Sequence record: OL780484.1
DNA: 64,000 nt
Reading direction: 5' to 3' (one strand)
Origin: Escherichia phage vB_EcoM-E33
Below are positions 2,846-43,842 of the stretch, one piece after another. The notes beneath the pieces were generated by a model that was not told the DNA's origin, did not search any database, and saw only the letters and a program-made list of their open reading frames with translations. Both the position numbers and the translations under genes were made by a program. The stretch's first letter is position 1; each line of letters starts with the position of its first letter.

Positions 2846-4372
2846 TTATTCTACTTTAATAATAAAAAGAACGGACATTGTCCATGGACGTGTTTCGTTG
2901 GCAATAAGACCTTCACTATTCAATGTGGTATGTCCATCACGGTTCCAAGGATCGGTGGTCTCAAAACCTTCGTTGGTATAATAACTACGGTTATCCCAGT
3001 CAAGGCCTTTACGAGTACCAACATATCCGGAGTTAGCGGTGTTACCAAAAGCGCCATAGTTATCATGTTCACCAAAACCACCAGCATGTTTATGATAACG
3101 TAATGCTTGGGCTTGAACGGAAGATTGCGGGAAAGAACCAACACCATTACCTAAACGGGCTTTACCTTTACCGTCTTCTCCTCGGTTACCGGCAATATGC
3201 GGGTTAACTTCGCCTTCAGAATATCCACCGACCATGTTAGCGCCACGAGGATATAATCCACGGAAATCTGGAATAGCACCCCACCATCCCCAACGCCCAC
3301 CAACAGCATTTAAATATGCACCACCAGTGTAAGTCCCACCTACACAAGCACGCCATTTACCAGGTATATTACCTTCATTGCCACCCCACATGCAAATAGT
3401 ACCCACCGGAACGCTATCTGATAATTGGTCATGGGTAACAACATCAACACCATTACGACGTAATGCTCCATTAACGTTTAAAGTACCCCATATTTCGCCG
3501 CCTGAAGTAGAAATAACGTTAGCATTATAAGCCAGCGCCGTATTACCATCGCCTTGGCCTACAGTAGTAGATAAACGAACCAACCCAATACGTCCAGTAT
3601 TACCTGTACGAGCTAACAAAGAAGCCGGTGTAACTGCGGCGGTATGGTCGGTACCATTAGATACCATATCCCAACCTGCGAGTTTAATAATACCGCTTCG
3701 TTCTTCGGTGGAAGTTAATGTGGCTAATCCTGCCGGAGAAATAGCGATACCTACCGAAAGACTTCCATTACCAACCTCTGCATTGGTCGCTAAACGAACT
3801 AAACCTTCATTTGTAGTCGTTGCTGTAGAATAAACCGGTAACGCGGCCGTCGCTGCACCAATTGCCTGAGATACTTTAAGTGGGGTCATTGCTGTGGTAT
3901 CATCGGTACCAGCTAATGCGGCAGGTGTAGTTGAAATCTTGATAACGCCTGTGGCGTTCTCTGTTGATAAACGGTTCTCAAATGTATAATCCATTACCGC
4001 TTTCAAAGAGGTTGCTACGATTGCAGCCTGGGGCTCTGTGCCTGCTATGGCTTCAGCGTTAGTAGCATAACGGGTGATACCTACATAAGTTTCTGTTGCC
4101 TGAGTAGGAATATCTAAACGAGCTTTTAAAGTTGCTGGTGTCACTGCACTATAAGCATCCAGACCATCCATTACTTCTTGTGTGGTTGCAAGACGAATAA
4201 TACCTTGGGATGTTTCTGTGGCTGAAGGAACATTACCTGTGACGCCGATTAATGAAATAGTGGCCAATGCTTCTTGAACATTAGTAATATCAGGCGGGAA
4301 ATTCGACCCAGTAGGGTCGAATGATTTGAATTCCGATTTATCACTAATGTGTTTTAGTGTGTTTGTTGACAT
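2846..4372 (-). CDS. 12: short tail fibre gp12
   Basis: 508 aa; KFDPTG.NFPP.IT.VQ N-terminus and C-terminal HKHAGGFGEHDNYGAFGN...GNETRPW match T4 gp12 as recalled. Confidence 0.9.
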   Translation of the reverse strand: MSTNTLKHISDKSEFKSFDPTGSNFPPDITNVQEALATISLIGVTGNVPSATETSQGIIRLATTQEVMDGLDAYSAVTPATLKARLDIPTQATETYVGITRYATNAEAIAGTEPQAAIVATSLKAVMDYTFENRLSTENATGVIKISTTPAALAGTDDTTAMTPLKVSQAIGAATAALPVYSTATTTNEGLVRLATNAEVGNGSLSVGIAISPAGLATLTSTEERSGIIKLAGWDMVSNGTDHTAAVTPASLLARTGNTGRIGLVRLSTTVGQGDGNTALAYNANVISTSGGEIWGTLNVNGALRRNGVDVVTHDQLSDSVPVGTICMWGGNEGNIPGKWRACVGGTYTGGAYLNAVGGRWGWWGAIPDFRGLYPRGANMVGGYSEGEVNPHIAGNRGEDGKGKARLGNGVGSFPQSSVQAQALRYHKHAGGFGEHDNYGAFGNTANSGYVGTRKGLDWDNRSYYTNEGFETTDPWNRDGHTTLNSEGLIANETRPWTMSVLFIIKVE

Positions 4373-15914: not shown

Positions 15915-17702
15915 TTAACCGACCTGTACGTTGCCACCAGATACTTTAGCTAATGAACCGCCATCCATATGCACAGTATTTGATGCGTTTAAATTAATGT
16001 TCGTCGCTGCAAAATTTAAATCTTGTTCGACATTTACATCCATATTTTGAGCATTGATTGTGGCCTTTTGTTTAACGCTTATATCTGCATTCTGGTTGAC
16101 ATTAACTGTTGTATCTTTTTCAACCGTAATATATGCTTCTTGTTCAACAGTTATATCAGCAGTACCCATAATAACTATTTTAACATTTCCTTTAACAAGC
16201 AGAGTTCCATTACCTTCTACAGTTTTGGTTTCATTCCCTCGAATATGAATGCTTTCAGACCCATCAGTTTGACGGCGCACGTTTGCCATATTATAATAGG
16301 TTTCATCGCCACCAACGTTGACTTTATTATTACCACCAACATAAGTATTTGAATCGCCTTGGGTCATATAATAACCATCGGCTACCGTCTTAGAAGTTTT
16401 ACGTCCATCAGGAGCAACTTCTTCATAACTACCGGTAGGATGGATTAAACGGTATCGTTCTTGCCCTGGGGTATTATCGAATTCTTGGATATGCCCGCCT
16501 TCAGTTTGCATGGTTTGGACATATGGATATTCGCCTTTATAACTAGAATCAGGTTCTTTAAAAAGAATCCTTGTGTCTTCTGGAGTCCACGGGTCGGCAG
16601 GGTCTGAATTTGTAGGGGCCACAAAGGTTTGAATCATTCTATACGAACGGCCATTAAATGACCTTTCTTTAGGGGCCATAATACCATATGATTCCATGTT
16701 ACCTGTGAGGATAATCATTGACACCCTTGATGCGCGACCTTTAGTTTGGTTAAACCATACTGAATTACGAGCTTCCTCAAATGCCTTTTTATAATCGCCT
16801 ATTAGCATTGCACTAAGCATTCCACGGAATTTAGCCAATCCACCTAATCCCATTTGGAAAGCCATGTTTTCAAGAGCCATTTGTCTTGAACGGTTTTCTT
16901 TATTGTAAACAGGACCTACAACACTATGCCGACCTATATCGTTTTGGACTTTTTTAAGGTCTTCTTGGAATAATTTAGAAGCCTCATCCATTGATATTGC
17001 ACCAGGGTTGCCTTTAACTTCTCGTCCTACCTGATTAGATAATATTTTGTTTATTCGATTCATATCTCTAATAGGTTGTGGTGTGATAAGGTGGCCTATA
17101 CCTATAGTAGGATAACCTTCGGTATCCCAATATACCTTCAGTCTAAGCCCTTCATCACGATGAAGCATGTTTTCTATTGTGAAATTAGGATTATCGTCTG
17201 GTTTGACTTGACTTAAATCCAACCCGTCAGGATTAATACCTACATCAGTGTTTGCATCTTGTATTACGTTAGAAGTGGCATCGTATCCAACTTCACCACC
17301 TCGGTTTAAAGCAGCAGCATCGTTACCTAAATAAAGCGGATATTGGCCTGTAGGGTCACTAAACCCTTCATTAGGATTAGCCTTCTGTCTTGAAGCGGAA
17401 CCGTATGTACCAAGGACAAGTCCGTTTAATTTCCACTTATCAAGAAAGTGACCATAAACTTGTGTACCGGGGACCATACCAGTCATAGCGGTTTGGATAC
17501 CTGAAACAGAGGCAGAAGATGTAGGCATTAATACCGACATCCATGGTAAATCTTCTGTACGAAGGCCTTTTACAGGGCCTTGTACTTTTTCATATGGATG
17601 CATACCCCATACGCGCACGCGTACTCGGCCTTGTTGGAGTGGGTCCATACGGTCTTCAACCACCCCTACGAACCAACTGACATTATCAGACATGTTAATC
17701 AT
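15915..17702 (-). CDS. 5: baseplate hub/cell-puncturing spike with lysozyme domain gp5
   Basis: 595 aa; N-terminal WFVGVVEDRMDP; lysozyme motif DEGL..WDTEGYPTIGIGH; C-terminal repetitive VxVxQ beta-helix segment. Confidence 0.92.
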   Translation of the reverse strand: MINMSDNVSWFVGVVEDRMDPLQQGRVRVRVWGMHPYEKVQGPVKGLRTEDLPWMSVLMPTSSASVSGIQTAMTGMVPGTQVYGHFLDKWKLNGLVLGTYGSASRQKANPNEGFSDPTGQYPLYLGNDAAALNRGGEVGYDATSNVIQDANTDVGINPDGLDLSQVKPDDNPNFTIENMLHRDEGLRLKVYWDTEGYPTIGIGHLITPQPIRDMNRINKILSNQVGREVKGNPGAISMDEASKLFQEDLKKVQNDIGRHSVVGPVYNKENRSRQMALENMAFQMGLGGLAKFRGMLSAMLIGDYKKAFEEARNSVWFNQTKGRASRVSMIILTGNMESYGIMAPKERSFNGRSYRMIQTFVAPTNSDPADPWTPEDTRILFKEPDSSYKGEYPYVQTMQTEGGHIQEFDNTPGQERYRLIHPTGSYEEVAPDGRKTSKTVADGYYMTQGDSNTYVGGNNKVNVGGDETYYNMANVRRQTDGSESIHIRGNETKTVEGNGTLLVKGNVKIVIMGTADITVEQEAYITVEKDTTVNVNQNADISVKQKATINAQNMDVNVEQDLNFAATNINLNASNTVHMDGGSLAKVSGGNVQVG

Positions 17703-18301
17703 AGCGCTTTTTCCATTTCTCTAATTAAAGCGGAAACAAAGGACTCGATGTCATTAGGGTCTATAATCTTTATTTCGCGCTTATATTCATTTTTACGAAT
17801 GGCGTCCTCGTAAATATCTACTGCAGCCAAAGGACCTTCATATTGAGGATAACGTTTTTCTGTATCACCTTTATCGTACCAAGTATAAGGATTTTCCGGA
17901 GTATTTACTAGATTCCAGAATTTCTCACCCTTTTCATTGACATGATAAAGGACTTGGTTTCCGCCTGCAGTAGCATAACGTTGAATAGCTGCTTGATACG
18001 CAGATTCTTGGCCTGTAATCCAGCCGTAATAAGGGTCATAGATATTGTTACACATTAAAAGGACCCAATATAATTGCACGTTACCATAAAGTTGATGGGC
18101 TAATTCTTCTGGACGAGGGGCCCCACTGATATAATATGTTTTAAGTGTATAATTTTTAGCCACTTTATCAAAATATTCTTTATAGTTTCTAAATATATCA
18201 GTCATCGGTACGCTCAGTACATCGGCATCAGTTAATGAGCCCGAATCCGGCTTGACTGTTTTTGATTCATAATTGATAGGATCGAAAAATGAGAAGAGCA
18301 T
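17699..18301 (-). CDS. 53: baseplate wedge protein gp53
   Basis: 200 aa; MLFSFFDPI..MTDIFRNYKEYF..YWVLLMCNNIYDPYYGWITGQE match T4 gp53. Confidence 0.9.
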   Translation of the reverse strand: MLFSFFDPINYESKTVKPDSGSLTDADVLSVPMTDIFRNYKEYFDKVAKNYTLKTYYISGAPRPEELAHQLYGNVQLYWVLLMCNNIYDPYYGWITGQESAYQAAIQRYATAGGNQVLYHVNEKGEKFWNLVNTPENPYTWYDKGDTEKRYPQYEGPLAAVDIYEDAIRKNEYKREIKIIDPNDIESFVSALIREMEKAL

Positions 18302-18346
18302 AGTGCCTCCGAGTATAAATAATATTAATATTTATAAGGAGGCACT
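18302..18346. promoter_or_regulatory. divergent late promoters (TATAAATA on both strands) inside a palindrome
   Basis: Plus TATAAATA at 18314-18321; minus TATAAATA (plus tatttata) at 18329-18336; flanked by inverted repeat agtgcctcc / ggaggcact that carries the Shine-Dalgarno (SD) sequence of each divergent gene. Confidence 0.6.
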
Positions 18347-18796
18347 ATGGCCTACTCAGGGAAATTTAAACCTACAAACTTACAAAAATATAAAGGTGAT
18401 TGGAAGAAAATCCAATATCGTTCCTCTTGGGAAGCATGGCTTATGCGTTGGCTTGACAACCATCCTAATGTCGTCCAGTGGAACTCGGAAGAGGTTGTGA
18501 TTCCATATTTTAGTAACGCTGATGGAAAGAAACGTCGGTATTTTATGGACTTCTGGGTGAAGTTCGACAATGGTCAACAATTCTTTTTCGAAGTCAAACC
18601 TTTTAAAGAGACCCATCCTCCAGCGGCGCCTGCTAAAATGACTACAGCTGCTAAAAAGAGATATATCAACGAACATTATACATGGAGTGTAAATAAAGAT
18701 AAATGGAAAGCTGCTAAAGCTACAGCAGATAAAATGGGAATTAATTTCAGATTGATTACCGAAAACTCACTGAAAAAATTAGGATGGAAAGGATGA
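18347..18796 (+). CDS. 4: head completion protein gp4
   Basis: 149 aa; [41 protein letters not shown] match T4 gp4. Confidence 0.88.
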
Positions 18797-19620
18797 GTAT
18801 ATTTTCTTACATCAACGAGGCTACTGAAACTACAAAAGGTTCCAAGCCTACTCGTTCAGAACAACAATGGATAACTTTAGGCGTTGAATATGCCAACGCT
18901 AAGGCTAAAGGTGTTTCGGCTAAGAAATTCGCTGAAGATAAAGGCATCAAGTATTCTAGCTTTACATCTGCGATGTCTCGATACTCGAGTCGAATTAAAA
19001 CTGCTGTACAGGTTGAAAAACTTCAGAAGAAACCTGGCAATAAATTAACCAAAGCAGAACGTCAATTAATTTTGGTGAATAGTTTTAGAAAGAGTATTCG
19101 CGATAAGATTGCTAACGAAGGCGCTGCCGTAAACAATAAATCAGCTAAATGGTTTACAGAAACATTAAAGAAAGGAATTCGTGGACACCAGGTATCTAAA
19201 CCGTCTCCTGGTAAGCTTTATGCTTATATCTATGATGCCAAACATAAGGATACCCTACCATACTGGGACAAATATCCTTTAATAATTTATCTTGGGTTAG
19301 GTAAGCATAATTTAATGTACGGACTGAACTTACACTATATTCCACCTAAAGCACGTCAGCAATTTCTGGAAGAATTGCTGAAGCAATACGCGAGTACGCC
19401 TACCATTACGAACTCGACTAAATTAAAAATCGATTGGAGTAAGGTAAAAGGATTCGCTGGCGCCGACGTGATGATTAAGGCTTATATCCCTGGAAATATT
19501 AAGGGACCTTTAGTAGAGATAAAACCGTCTGATTGGGCTAATGTAATAGGATTACCACTTCAGCAATTTGTATCGAAAGGTAAGCGTTATTCAGCTCAGA
19601 AAGTTTGGAAGAAGGCATAA
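18784..19620 (+). CDS. 2: probable gp2 (DNA end protector), assigned by position
   Basis: 278 aa basic protein between gp4 and gp3, size close to T4 gp2; alternative start ATG 18793 overlaps the gp4 stop (ATGA); no motif recognised. Confidence 0.55.
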
Positions 19621-20270
19621 TGAATTACCAGAAAATATATTCTTCATTAATTACACGTGCTCAAGGACGAGCACTATCCTGTTATACCGAATCTCATCAT
19701 ATTTTACCTAGATGTATGGGTGGAGGTGATGAATCTACAAACTTAGTTGATTTAACTCCTGAAGAACATTATTTAGCACATCAACTATTAGTTAAAATGC
19801 ATCCAGGACATCCTGGTCTAACTTTTGCAGCTATGACAATGACTCAAGGCCCTCGTCGTTCTAATAAGCTTTACGGCTGGCTTAAACGTAAGCACTCTGA
19901 GAATATCACAGCAACCCAAACAGGAAAGGTTTATTATAATAATGGCAAGAAGTGTATTAAGCTGTTTCCGGGTGAACCGATTCCTGAAGGATTTGTAAAG
20001 GGACGAGGATGGAGTCCTACAAAAGGAACCACTCATGATAGGAATAATGGCCGTTTTGCCAATAAAGAACTCCAAGCGGAGCTTTCTAAACGGAGATGGG
20101 ATAAAGCCAGAAAGGAAACTTGTGAACAATTTGGTGTGGATACTATAGAAGAGGCCAAGGATATGGTTCGGGCATTTAAAGCTACATGCCACGAAAGATA
20201 CTGGATAAAACCAACTATAGCCAAATGGCCTTTTATGACACCAGTAAGACTACGTGAATTTATAAAATAA
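19620..20270 (+). CDS. HNH homing endonuclease (free-standing), copy 1
   Basis: YTESHHILPRCMGGGDESTNLVDLTPEEHYLAH is an HNH motif; start taken at ATG 19620 overlapping the gp2 stop (TAATG); ORF track start 19605. Confidence 0.8.
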   Translation: MNYQKIYSSLITRAQGRALSCYTESHHILPRCMGGGDESTNLVDLTPEEHYLAHQLLVKMHPGHPGLTFAAMTMTQGPRRSNKLYGWLKRKHSENITATQTGKVYYNNGKKCIKLFPGEPIPEGFVKGRGWSPTKGTTHDRNNGRFANKELQAELSKRRWDKARKETCEQFGVDTIEEAKDMVRAFKATCHERYWIKPTIAKWPFMTPVRLREFIK

Positions 20271-20352
20271 TCTATTATCCCAGCCAGTTATTGAATGGAA
20301 CAGACCTAGGACCATTATACACTGTCTGGGACTTAAGCAATATAGGAACCCT

Positions 20353-20943
20353 ATGAACGGTTTATTTAACCAAACTAACACTACTAACTTTATCTTAGAG
20401 GTTAGTGACGCAGGAATGACACAGGCATTCAAATTGAACGTACAAGATGTAACACTACCGGGTATCCATATTCCGGTCTCAGACGTCCCAGGATCGACCC
20501 AGGGCATACATCGTGCTAAGCTGCCAGGTTCTACTGTAGAATTCGACCCATTGATTGTGAACTTTCTTGTGGACCGTGAATTGAAATCATGGCTTGATGT
20601 TTATAAGTGGATGTTGTCATTAAACAACTATGTAACCCATGATTCAGAAGCCTGGCACCCTAAAGGACAACCGGAAGCTATCACCCTCCACATCCTTGAT
20701 AACAACAAACAAAAAATCGTAATGAGCATTCATTACTACGGTGGTTGGCCATCCGACCTCTCGGAAATCCAGTACTCTTATAAAGAGGATTCTGACCCGG
20801 CGATAATCGCCACAGCAACATTCAACTTCAAATCGTTTGCTGTAGAAATAGATGGTACAATAGTTACAGGTCGTCCACAAATTGATTCGTATGCCGAACA
20901 ACGAGTGGCTCGTATGTCTATGCATCCATCTATGAGAAAATAA
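20353..20943 (+). CDS. 3: probable gp3 (tail tube terminator), assigned by position
   Basis: 196 aa ORF between gp2 and gp1 as in T4; no motif recognised. Confidence 0.5.
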   Translation: MNGLFNQTNTTNFILEVSDAGMTQAFKLNVQDVTLPGIHIPVSDVPGSTQGIHRAKLPGSTVEFDPLIVNFLVDRELKSWLDVYKWMLSLNNYVTHDSEAWHPKGQPEAITLHILDNNKQKIVMSIHYYGGWPSDLSEIQYSYKEDSDPAIIATATFNFKSFAVEIDGTIVTGRPQIDSYAEQRVARMSMHPSMRK

Positions 20944-21693
20944 TGAAACTAATATCAATTGTAGGAATCAAACGTAGCGGTAAGGATACCGTTGCTAACT
21001 ATGTAATCGAAAATATGGATTCGGTAAAATTTCAGCTCGCAGGTCCTATTAAAAAGTATCTGGCTGAAGCCTATGAATACATCTCTGATGACCCTGTATT
21101 CGACCGTAGTTACATGCCTAAACTAGATTTTAACTGTTTTGAAGGTATCGGTTACGACCGTGAAGAAATCCTTCCTTTAAAACCAGATGATGTGATTGAT
21201 ATCTTTGAACATGCTATTGTCAAACTGAATAATATCCTTCCTATTCCAGGAATTGATACCGTAACTACGTATCATTATGGTCCTACCATTCAATATCTGT
21301 CTGAAGAAACAAAAGACCAACTGTTTGAAGTAATAAATAAAAATAACAATTGGTCAGTACGTCGTCTCATGCAGACCCTTGGGACTGATATTATTGTTAA
21401 CCAATTTGATAAGATGTATTGGGTTAAGTTGTTCGCTTTAGACTATTTTGATAAAATATACTCTGATGCGAAATACTATGTCGTACCTGATGTTCGTCAA
21501 ACACACGAAATTGATTCGCTCAGAGCGATGGGTGCTACGATTATTCATGTAGTTCGCGCTGAAACCGGTCAAGTACAAGACTCGCACATCACTGAAGCGG
21601 GTCTACCAATTTTACCCGGTGACGTTGTTATTGAAAATAACGGCACTCTTTCTGAACTATACACCACTATTGATAAATTATTAGGAAATAAAA

Positions 21694-41492: not shown

Positions 41493-41749
41493 TGGCTGTC
41501 GGTTTTGCGAAGGATGGAGCCGAACAGCTCGAAATGGAAGCTGTTGTACAAGCCGCTATCACCCATGCGAGAGCACAAGTGGCTGTTGAACGTGAATCCT
41601 CTGAATTCTGTTTTGACTGCGACGAAAAAATTCCTGAAGCGCGGAGACAAGCGATTAAAGGTGTGATATATTGTGTTGGTTGTCAATCAATGCATGATAA
41701 AATTTTTAAACGTGAGCCACGAAATTGTTGGCACAGGAGCATGAGATGA
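41492..41749 (+). CDS. TraR/DksA-like C4 zinc-finger protein
   Basis: CFDC-x5-IPEARRQAIKGVIY-CVGC: C-x2-C-x17-C-x2-C with the IPEARR motif typical of the TraR/DksA zinc finger. Confidence 0.6.
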   Translation: MAVGFAKDGAEQLEMEAVVQAAITHARAQVAVERESSEFCFDCDEKIPEARRQAIKGVIYCVGCQSMHDKIFKREPRNCWHRSMR

Positions 41750-42619: not shown

Positions 42620-43078
42620 ATGATTATCAATGCAAACTCTTGGCATGTTAAACTACATGACCGTTTTTATGCCAGTTATTCACGTCCGCGCTCATTATGC
42701 GCATACTTCTGGAAAATGGTTTGGGCGTGCTTTATATGTTCTGTGCTTGCAGGTAGTACTATTTTCGGCTTAACTGTTGCAGGTGCCGGTATATTGGAGC
42801 AGTTCTTTGTATTGAGTACTCCTGTTGGTTTAAGTTTAGGTTTTATTTTAGGACTGGTTACACTAGCTCTTATTCTAGCGGTAGCCGTTGGTATTGTGTA
42901 TTGTATAATGAATTTATGGTCCTGGTATGATTTACGTAAAGAAGAAAAGGAATGGCTACTAATTAAAGCTAAACGTGAAGGAAAGGAAATTAAAGAAAAT
43001 ATCGTTATTCAATATATCAAAGCTCGTAAATCTAAGGTCTGCCCTGTAATCCACTTCGAGAACAAAACAAACCCATAA
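42620..43078 (+). CDS. integral membrane protein
   Basis: Several hydrophobic helices (FWKMVWACFICSVLAGSTIFGLTVAG, PVGLSLGFILGLVTLALILAVAVGIVYCI). Confidence 0.55.
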   Translation: MIINANSWHVKLHDRFYASYSRPRSLCAYFWKMVWACFICSVLAGSTIFGLTVAGAGILEQFFVLSTPVGLSLGFILGLVTLALILAVAVGIVYCIMNLWSWYDLRKEEKEWLLIKAKREGKEIKENIVIQYIKARKSKVCPVIHFENKTNP

Positions 43079-43842
43079 TGAATTATACCAAGCTTTATGA
43101 TAGTCTAATCCAAAGAGGTAAACTTAGAGGATTAGACAAATCCAAATTAAATTTTTATACAGAGTCCCATCATATACTCCCATCATGTATTGGTGGGAGT
43201 GATGAACCTAATAATTTAGTTCTGTTGACAGCCAGAGAACATTTTATAGCACACTGGCTTCTAGCTAGAATTCATTCTGATTCTTCTGGACTAATTTATG
43301 CTTGGTGGTCGTTTTATAGCTTCGGTGAGGATTCTCTAGGAAGAAATCTTAAACTAACTTCTAGAGGATACCAATTAGTTAGAGAAAAATTTTCAGAAAT
43401 TCATTCAAATGCGATGAAAGAAATATGGAAGACTGAAGAGTATAGAAATAAACGTTCTATAACTATGAGTCTACCGGAAATAAAAGATAAAATGTCTGCC
43501 GCTCAAATAGAAGCTCAAAACCGTCCTGAAGTTAAAGAGAAAATTTCTAAAGCTATTAAAGAAGCATTTAAACGCCCTGATGTTAGAGAAAGGCATTCTA
43601 ATGCTGTTAAGAAATCTCTAAATAATCCGGAAACTAAAAAGAGGCAATCTGATGCTTCTAAAGCAAAGCAAAGAATAGGAAAACATTGGCAAGATTATGA
43701 TTTGCTTTATTCTTTATGGGTTAAATTAAATAGGCCTAAGCGTGGGGCTTTTGGTACTTATATTAGTAAATTAGGATATCCCAAATCTAACTACCAACGT
43801 TTAATTATGCAATTTATTGAAGACTATGAAAGAGGTGAATAA
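43078..43842 (+). CDS. HNH homing endonuclease (free-standing), copy 2
   Basis: YTESHHILPSCIGGSDEPNNLVLLTAREHFIAH HNH motif; N-terminal ~60 aa paralogous to the 19620 endonuclease; C-terminal repeats NRPEVKEKISKAIK / RPDVRERHSNAVKK / NPETKKRQSDASK. Confidence 0.8.
   Translation: MNYTKLYDSLIQRGKLRGLDKSKLNFYTESHHILPSCIGGSDEPNNLVLLTAREHFIAHWLLARIHSDSSGLIYAWWSFYSFGEDSLGRNLKLTSRGYQLVREKFSEIHSNAMKEIWKTEEYRNKRSITMSLPEIKDKMSAAQIEAQNRPEVKEKISKAIKEAFKRPDVRERHSNAVKKSLNNPETKKRQSDASKAKQRIGKHWQDYDLLYSLWVKLNRPKRGAFGTYISKLGYPKSNYQRLIMQFIEDYERGE

Follow-up and report, generated by a model that had tools for sequence, protein, structure and literature searches.

A probable Mob-family HNH homing endonuclease gene at a conserved intergenic site between genes 2 and 3 of a JS98-like T-even phage

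Free-standing homing endonucleases of the Mob and Seg kinds are a textbook feature of T-even phages. One of them, MobE of T4, is a free-standing HNH homing endonuclease encoded between nrdA and nrdB (Wilson & Edgell 2009, PMC2790892). The gene that we analyse here lies between genes 2 and 3 of Escherichia phage vB_EcoM-E33 (OL780484.1) and resembles mobE in several respects: its start overlaps the upstream gene, it encodes an N-terminal HNH domain followed by a unique C-terminal domain, its distribution among the T-even phages is sporadic, and polymorphisms linked to it are found in the neighbouring gene near the insertion site. The two genes differ in their location (the nrd locus as opposed to the late structural genes 2 and 3) and in the C-terminal domain. 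Strand-specific nicking and biased inheritance have been shown experimentally for MobE and are only predicted for the HNH enzyme; and while the internal terminator of mobE is functional, the hairpin found in the HNH gene is not conserved outside Dhakavirus.

T4 MobD, as well as its ortholog located at 43078-43842 of the window – i.e. the whole stretch of 64,000 nucleotides that was analysed – shares 51-53% identity with the HNH protein over the first 70-75 residues, the HNH motif included. MobD differs in possessing NUMOD3-like repeats, in being encoded at another locus and in displaying no similarity to the HNH protein beyond about residue 75. A review of T4 gives the activity of mobA-D as 'ND' and lists no Mob gene at genes 2/3 (PMC2988022). 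RB32ORF146c and the other same-site homologs (from Tequatrovirus, Gaprivervirus, Kanagawavirus and other genera) are similar over their full length, with 51-79% amino acid identity, and share both the insertion point and the stop/start overlap; they differ from the HNH gene only by sequence divergence, which roughly parallels the divergence of the flanking genes. Finally, the phage enzymes I-HmuI and I-TevIII similarly join an HNH motif to a separate DNA-binding region, but reside inside group I introns and cut near the intron insertion site, whereas the HNH gene is not located in an intron; searches of the PDB with sequence and profile, as well as fold searches, yielded no significant match between I-HmuI and the HNH protein. 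In the literature that we searched, we found no experimental characterisation of the HNH enzyme or any of its same-site homologs, which appear in annotation tables only.

The gene, its neighbours and the encoded protein

The phage is a Dhakavirus, that is, a JS98-like T-even phage, and the region is 99.5% identical to that of Escherichia phage QL01. The surroundings of the HNH ORF constitute the T4 late cluster in the T4 order: gp5, gp53, gp4, gp2, the HNH ORF, gp3, gp1, 57A and 57B. The names of the neighbouring genes were assigned using the near-identical annotated records of QL01, LHE83 and JS98, complemented by tblastn:

15915-17702, minus strand: gp5 (near-identical annotated records, tblastn)
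17699-18301, minus strand: gp53 (near-identical annotated records, tblastn)
18347-18796, plus strand: gp4, head completion protein (near-identical annotated records, tblastn)
18784-19620, plus strand: gene 2, DNA end protector, 278 aa (QL01, LHE83 and JS98 annotation, tblastn)
19620-20270, plus strand: free-standing HNH homing endonuclease gene of the Mob family, as judged by sequence (ORF of 216 aa plus stop)
20353-20943, plus strand: gene 3, tail completion / sheath stabiliser, 196 aa, the downstream neighbour of the HNH gene

The earlier note on this DNA, made by reading the letters, had proposed that a 216-aa ORF is wedged between genes 2 and 3 and coupled to gene 2 via a TAATG overlap. 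Both points hold: the ORF is recovered on the plus strand with an ATG start, and the gene-2 stop codon TAA (19618-19620) overlaps the start codon of the HNH gene (19620-19622), with one A common to the two. The statement that T4 has no gene at this position is also correct, since the T4 record NC_000866 has only a 106-bp spacer there and no ORF. Whether or not the site is occupied, genes 2 and 3 are complete ORFs, and the insert follows the gene-2 stop and precedes the gene 2-3 spacer; the HNH gene is therefore intergenic and free-standing, and lies within neither an intron nor an intein. The last two codons of gene 2 differ between occupied and empty alleles (19614-19615). The HNH protein is 100% identical to a QL01 gene product annotated as 'homing endonuclease'. 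As a separate observation on the cluster, gp4 matches the Pfam family Tn7_TnsA-like_N, which has an endonuclease fold (E 2.9e-24).

The HNH protein has no match in Pfam (PF01844 and PF13392 included), either at E<=0.01 or at E<=10. As Pfam does not recognise the protein from the window, the HNH label given to it by the earlier note needed independent support. A search of NCBIfam produced a sub-threshold match to the IscB HNH family only, and the PDB search with the single sequence returned only weak HNH-motif matches. The protein does, however, match PHROG 655 'homing endonuclease' (7e-56), and 28 of 31 homologs match the Pfam HNH family PF01844 at E<=0.1, the best of them at 8.7e-5. A family profile built from the alignment of the 31 homologs and searched against the PDB gave exclusively HNH proteins as its best matches: McrA (E 0.0036), a group II intron maturase (0.0071) and Cas8-HNH (0.12). 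The similarity to T4 MobD amounts to 51% identity over the first 70-75 residues (E 2e-24), with none found beyond approximately residue 75. Taken with the invariant motif described below, these matches uphold the reading of the ORF as a free-standing HNH enzyme.

The proposed paralogy between the N-terminus of the HNH protein and the second HNH gene of the window was likewise confirmed, at 53% identity over residues 1-70 (E 2e-24). The shared N-terminal region is about 75 aa long when the two window paralogs are compared and extends to about 100-130 aa across the wider family. A tblastn search for a third Mob copy in the window produced a match at 41740 (E 0.047), which we consider noise: the frame contains stop codons. 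The paralog and the two parts of the HNH protein are as follows:

43078-43842, plus strand: Mob-type HNH paralog, ortholog of T4 mobD (79% identity to T4 MobD, 252 aa, E 3e-159)
19620-19919, plus strand: N-terminal HNH nuclease domain, residues 1-100 (alignment invariants, AlphaFold2 model, profile matches, identity to MobD)
19920-20267, plus strand: C-terminal locus-specific domain, residues 101-216 (conserved only in homologs at the gene 2/3 site)

In the alignment of 31 homologs, H26, H27, N41, E48, E49, H50 and H54 are invariant, forming an HH...N...H...H motif. All three of the profile matches in the PDB align over this HH..N..H segment, and the motif residues fall on those of the HNH domains in McrA and the group II maturase. 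The AlphaFold2 model of the protein (pLDDT 85) has two strands and a helix around the motif, and the putative beta-beta-alpha core would span residues 24-60 (strands 24-27 and 42-45, helix 47-60; pLDDT >90). Fold searches with the model gave no significant match. The C-terminal domain is modelled with a pLDDT of 83 as a beta-hairpin carrying a YYNNG...IKL...PEGFxKGR motif, a linker and a four-helix module; we detected no relative of residues 101-216 in Pfam or the PDB, and no significant fold match. It is presumed to serve in DNA binding and target recognition, as in the Mob proteins (PMC2790892). The modular architecture of the protein is the one published for this family (PMC2790892): the HNH-bearing N-terminus is homologous to Mob proteins and the C-terminus is specific to the member.

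Occupied and empty sites

Alignment of the window to phages lacking the gene defines an insertion of exactly 650 bp:

19622-20271: insertion relative to empty-site phages (LHE83 and JS98 alignments; junctions of 19 genomes)

The placement of the insert is ambiguous by the 5-bp ATAAT, which is present at both 19617-19621 and 20267-20271. The empty allele reads CATAAT followed directly by CTATTATCCC, while in the occupied allele the same CATAAT is followed by the 650 bp and then by CTATTATCCC; in the longer context given by base-level alignment, the empty allele reads GAAGAATTCATAAT joined to CTATTATCCC, and the occupied allele GAAGAAGGCATAAT, the 650 bp and CTATTATCCC.

A megablast search with the segment from gene 2 through gene 3 returned 57 records, of which 51 reach the identity typical of Dhakavirus (>=90%). 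The insert is present in eight of these 51: QL01 (two records), LQ5, ABTNLS3, C6, 04086, SHP1 and dhabil. The remainder, approximately 43, have a clean empty site, seen as two match pieces that close to about 1510 bp. The comparison of the gene 2-3 junction suggested by the earlier note thus shows that the gene is not fixed in the relatives, the empty sites being scarless: it is absent from about 85% of close relatives, all of them viable isolates, and from T4. The 216-aa ORF is intact in all eight occupied Dhakavirus genomes. A shorter CDS is annotated in C6 and SHP1, and we therefore considered the possibility that these copies are decayed; this was ruled out, as both contain the full ORF. 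A sporadic distribution with base-exact empty-site alleles is what is looked for in a homing gene, and it is what we found.

The same site is used well beyond Dhakavirus. All 76 full-length homologs detected in the phage collection (E<=1e-40) overlap or abut a gene annotated as 'DNA end protector', and their hosts include Escherichia, Shigella, Salmonella, Kosakonia, Serratia and Erwinia, as well as Citrobacter, Klebsiella, Enterobacter, Yersinia and Acinetobacter. The start of the HNH gene overlaps the gene-2 stop in each of the five lineages that we examined, i.e. Dhakavirus and the four below, listed with the amino acid identity to the HNH protein:

Kosakonia phage 305 junction: 79% identity, TAATG overlap
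VR25-like locus L037 junction: 61% identity, TTG start inside TTGA; the siblings L017 and L018 are empty
L019 junction: 50% identity, ATGA overlap
RB32 (T4's own genus) junction: 61% identity, ATGA overlap

Within T4's genus, the 61%-identical homolog is found at this site in RB32, RB33, HY03 and others. The right junction, TAA|T(T)CTATTATC, is common to Dhakavirus, Kosakonia phage 305, L037 and RB32, and is as in the empty relatives and T4. The polymorphism between occupied and empty sites likewise recurs in VR25-like, Kanagawavirus-like and Tequatrovirus phages.

Other insertions were noted in the same neighbourhood. The gene 5-53-4-2-3 cluster of other T-even phages is a hot spot of endonuclease insertion, as noted at L016, L021 and L045 (about 3880-4340), L025, L030 and L032 (4350-5000) and L063 (2281-2916); the window is free of these additional genes. 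Mob-type N-termini are found upstream of gene 4, gaps of ~650 bp separate genes 4 and 2, and a Seg-like gene is annotated in phage IME540 between genes 5 and 53.

Expression and the gene 2-gene 3 spacer

On its own strand, the HNH gene has a single T4-type late promoter motif upstream of it:

18314-18321, plus strand: T4-type late promoter TATAAATA, upstream of gene 4

No further TATAAATA is found between 18322 and 24703, and hence no late promoter of this type precedes either the HNH gene or gene 3; a scan for sigma-70-type promoters gave nothing above the shuffled expectation. Since it has no late promoter motif of its own, the HNH gene appears to be promoterless and is presumably read from the gene 4-2-3 late transcript. 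We infer that its translation is coupled to termination on gene 2. The mobE gene also lacks a promoter and overlaps nrdA, which lies upstream of it, and its product nicks a polymorphic site close to where the gene is inserted; for mobE the same expression arrangement has been demonstrated or proposed (PMC2790892, PMC2988022). As for the promoter region itself, two TATAAATA motifs stand back to back in the spacer between genes 53 and 4, at 18314 (plus) and 18329 (minus), 8 bp apart (18314-18336); this divergent pair presumably drives two divergent late operons.

Two candidate regulatory features were rejected. The first was an internal terminator similar to that of mobE: the hairpin CCAGGACATCCTGG followed by a T-run at 19803-19826. 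It arises from the codons of an HPGHPG stretch and is probably incidental; the Kosakonia, RB32, L037 and L019 copies lack it and, as it is confined to the Dhakavirus copies, we do not regard it as a conserved feature. The second was a Shine-Dalgarno sequence created by the insertion: the AAGG that precedes the ATG in the window is AATG in ABTNLS3 and C6 and AACG in dhabil, and is thus not conserved. We note that a scan for terminator-like patterns across 18200-21000 (2.8 kb) yielded nine sites, as compared to 1.9 expected from shuffles, most of them inside coding sequence.

The sequence immediately 3' of the insert is unchanged by the insertion:

20271-20352, plus strand: gene 2-gene 3 intergenic region (stem-loop and motifs conserved across T-even genera)

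This spacer and the 3' end of gene 2 together make up the candidate homing site. It contains a stem-loop at 20278-20331 (-22 kcal/mol, z -2.3), in which Kanagawavirus-like loci display an apparent compensatory change from A:U to G:C. All of the T-even genera examined, T4 included, have TCTATTATC, CCATTATAC and TAAGC as motifs without variation; the spacer was additionally viewed in L005 (3956-4061), L012 and L015-L017. There is no TATAAATA late promoter in the spacer, no Rfam family was matched across 18200-21000, and an RNAalifold consensus of the spacer across genera, for which the alignment is divergent, did not recover the long stem. The spacer element could act in RNA processing or stability, or serve as an atypical gene 3 promoter. 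It is also conceivable that the downstream element (the stem-loop together with CCATTATAC/TAAGC) might be two things at once: the target of the enzyme and a functional RNA or DNA signal.

Mobility, maintenance and alternative readings

As judged by every feature that sequence can address, the ORF at 19620 is a free-standing HNH homing endonuclease gene of the Mob family. We assign a probability of roughly 85% to the reading that it is a T4 Mob (HNH) gene of this kind residing immediately behind the gene-2 stop, at an intergenic site that is conserved. In the mechanism that we propose, the gene would be transcribed late, on the gene 4-2-3 message originating at the 18314 promoter, and translated at a low level by termination-reinitiation coupled to gene 2. 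In a mixed infection with an empty relative, the C-terminal domain would bind the 3' end of gene 2 and the intergenic sequence of the empty allele, with the HNH domain nicking or cutting near the bound site. The linked polymorphisms make the end of gene 2, on the left, the most likely place for the cut. Repair by recombination with the occupied genome would then copy the cassette into the recipient, along with a short tract of flanking sequence; the insertion, the linked substitutions or both would protect the occupied genome itself. That the enzyme cleaves the cognate empty site, where and on which strand it does so, and homing itself are thus our inference.

Several observations bear on the spread of the cassette. 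Between the window and 04086, SHP1 and C6, the cassette is 99.2, 98.5 and 98.6% identical, respectively, while the 800-bp flanks on each side are 94.5-97.4% identical; the excess has binomial p-values from 1e-7 to 1e-3. The flanks nearest to those of the window belong to empty phages: LHE83 (99.8/98.6%) and IME540 (99.2/98.9%). Similarly, the 24-kb backbone (window 8000-32000) is nearest to the empty phages PSD2002 and LHE83 (97.8%). Sites that distinguish QL01 from PSD2002 are QL01-like in the window at 19545-20571 and PSD2002-like on either side, with two informative sites supporting the left boundary and 27 the right one. As read from these sites, such a tract is the pattern of a short conversion tract bearing the cassette. 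More generally, the window phage is mosaic and not identical to any record in the collection: its gene 2-HNH-gene 3 segment is QL01-like, and its gp5 has the 595-aa form found in WG01, LHE83 and PSD2002 rather than the 580-aa form of QL01.

Polymorphisms linked to the presence of the HNH gene are located at the 3' end of gene 2:

19545-19615: HNH-linked polymorphisms (patch 19545-19581, SNP 19605, positions 19614-19615)

Position 19605 is the synonymous third base of a Val codon (19603-19605), and is T in all eight occupied genomes and A in ten of the 11 empty ones (Fisher p = 1.2e-4, without phylogenetic correction, the 19 genomes being related and not independent). The association has exceptions: the empty L010 carries the 'occupied' allele at 19605, and the occupied Kosakonia phage 305 and L037 carry the 'empty' GTA codon. 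The patch at 19545-19581 lies near the gp2 C-terminus, 40-75 bp upstream of the insertion point, and displays contiguous, partly non-synonymous variation, in contrast to the third-position variation seen elsewhere in gene 2; its alleles are partly associated with HNH presence. Among the 19 genomes, no site of the right flank is associated with HNH status, and the linked sites all lie on the left, at the end of gene 2. We regard the linked polymorphisms not as a result but as a clue to where the site of cleavage or immunity may lie.

The estimates of selection and long-term divergence leave some room for a different account of why the gene is kept. Its dN/dS is 0.075-0.15 (0.077 relative to dhabil and 0.075 relative to Kosakonia phage 305), the same as that of its neighbours gp2 (0.06-0.08) and gp3 (0.05-0.08). 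With a dN/dS of about 0.08, the protein must have been maintained as functional, and purifying selection as strong as that acting on essential neighbours could reflect some benefit to the phage. The HNH gene and the flanks have the same dS, both for the window versus dhabil and for the window versus Kosakonia phage 305, and the gene has therefore co-diverged with the locus over long times. Such co-divergence agrees equally well with two histories: frequent homing, or a long vertical residence in which losses came about by ordinary recombination. It is also plausibly explained by a homing element that cycles mainly among close relatives, as repair needs homologous flanks.

On the account in question, the nuclease is of homing descent but domesticated or otherwise beneficial: it would exclude the markers of co-infecting relatives, degrade the DNA of competitors or of the host late in infection, or regulate the gene 2/3 region through binding to its own site, much as I-TevI represses its own promoter, and it is this benefit, not selfish spread, that would explain its maintenance. 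Purifying selection on a par with that on essential gp2 and gp3 in a gene of which all copies are intact, a dS that matches the flanks across genera, pointing to long residence at one locus, and the conservation of the translational coupling to gene 2 in five lineages are all in line with such a benefit. Bioinformatics alone cannot separate active homing from domestication (PMC10448857), which we also count in its favour. On the other hand, about 85% of close relatives, as well as T4, are viable without the gene; in several Dhakaviruses the cassette is less diverged than its flanks, as lateral spread predicts; and marker exclusion is a consequence of homing-type cleavage rather than an alternative mechanism to it. 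We consequently judge this account improbable. The somewhat broader proposition that the enzyme is more than a passive selfish element, acting as a weapon of competition or as a regulator of the gene 2-3 junction, we also consider unlikely, if marginally less so; we leave room for it because of the selection matching that on essential neighbours, the dS equal to that of the flanks across genera and the coupling retained in five lineages.

Could the gene instead be ancestral, already located between genes 2 and 3 in the common ancestor of these T-even genera, now immobile and repeatedly lost, with empty sites that originated from deletion and were spread by ordinary homologous recombination? 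The divergence of the HNH gene does track that of the flanks, both between dhabil and the window and between genera, and the same site is occupied in many genera, as this scenario would predict. However, the empty sites are base-identical in many lineages and genera, while the microhomology available for deletion is only 4-5 bp. Moreover, the similarity of the HNH gene significantly exceeds that of its flanks in three phage pairs. Finally, an immobile and dispensable gene is expected to decay, and yet all eight Dhakavirus copies are intact, with a dN/dS of 0.08. Repeated loss is thus very unlikely to account for the distribution. A packaging-associated HNH nuclease acting with gp2 in the manner of the HK97-type terminase helper is hardly credible: only the adjacency to gene 2 and the late co-expression speak for it, whereas T4-type phages package by the headful mechanism with gp16/gp17 and need no HNH packaging factor, most relatives lack the gene, as does T4, and the many natural empty-site phages imply that packaging and the protection of DNA ends are normal without it, its neighbours are genes 2 and 3 with no terminase gene adjacent, as there would be for a nuclease of the HK97 gp74 type, and its nearest characterised relatives are the Mob homing endonucleases.

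Returning to the reading of the ORF as a Mob homing endonuclease gene, the gene itself is already known: the identical protein of QL01 is annotated and the RB32 homolog was annotated in 2006. On account of these annotations, and since such genes are an ordinary T-even feature, the value of the finding as a discovery is small. Its practical value is that of a clean natural test system for Mob specificity. Isolated phage pairs that match at ~99% in the surroundings of the site, one with the cassette and the other without it, are at hand: QL01 and LQ5 versus WG01, LHE83 and PSD2002, and, in T4's genus, RB32 versus T4. Mapping the target of the HNH enzyme would add a new specificity. It would put to the test, too, the proposal that the limits of genetic exchange among phages are marked by nucleases of this kind (PMC10448857). 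Lastly, a dual role of the spacer element, if true, would explain why the homing site has remained stable across the T-even genera.
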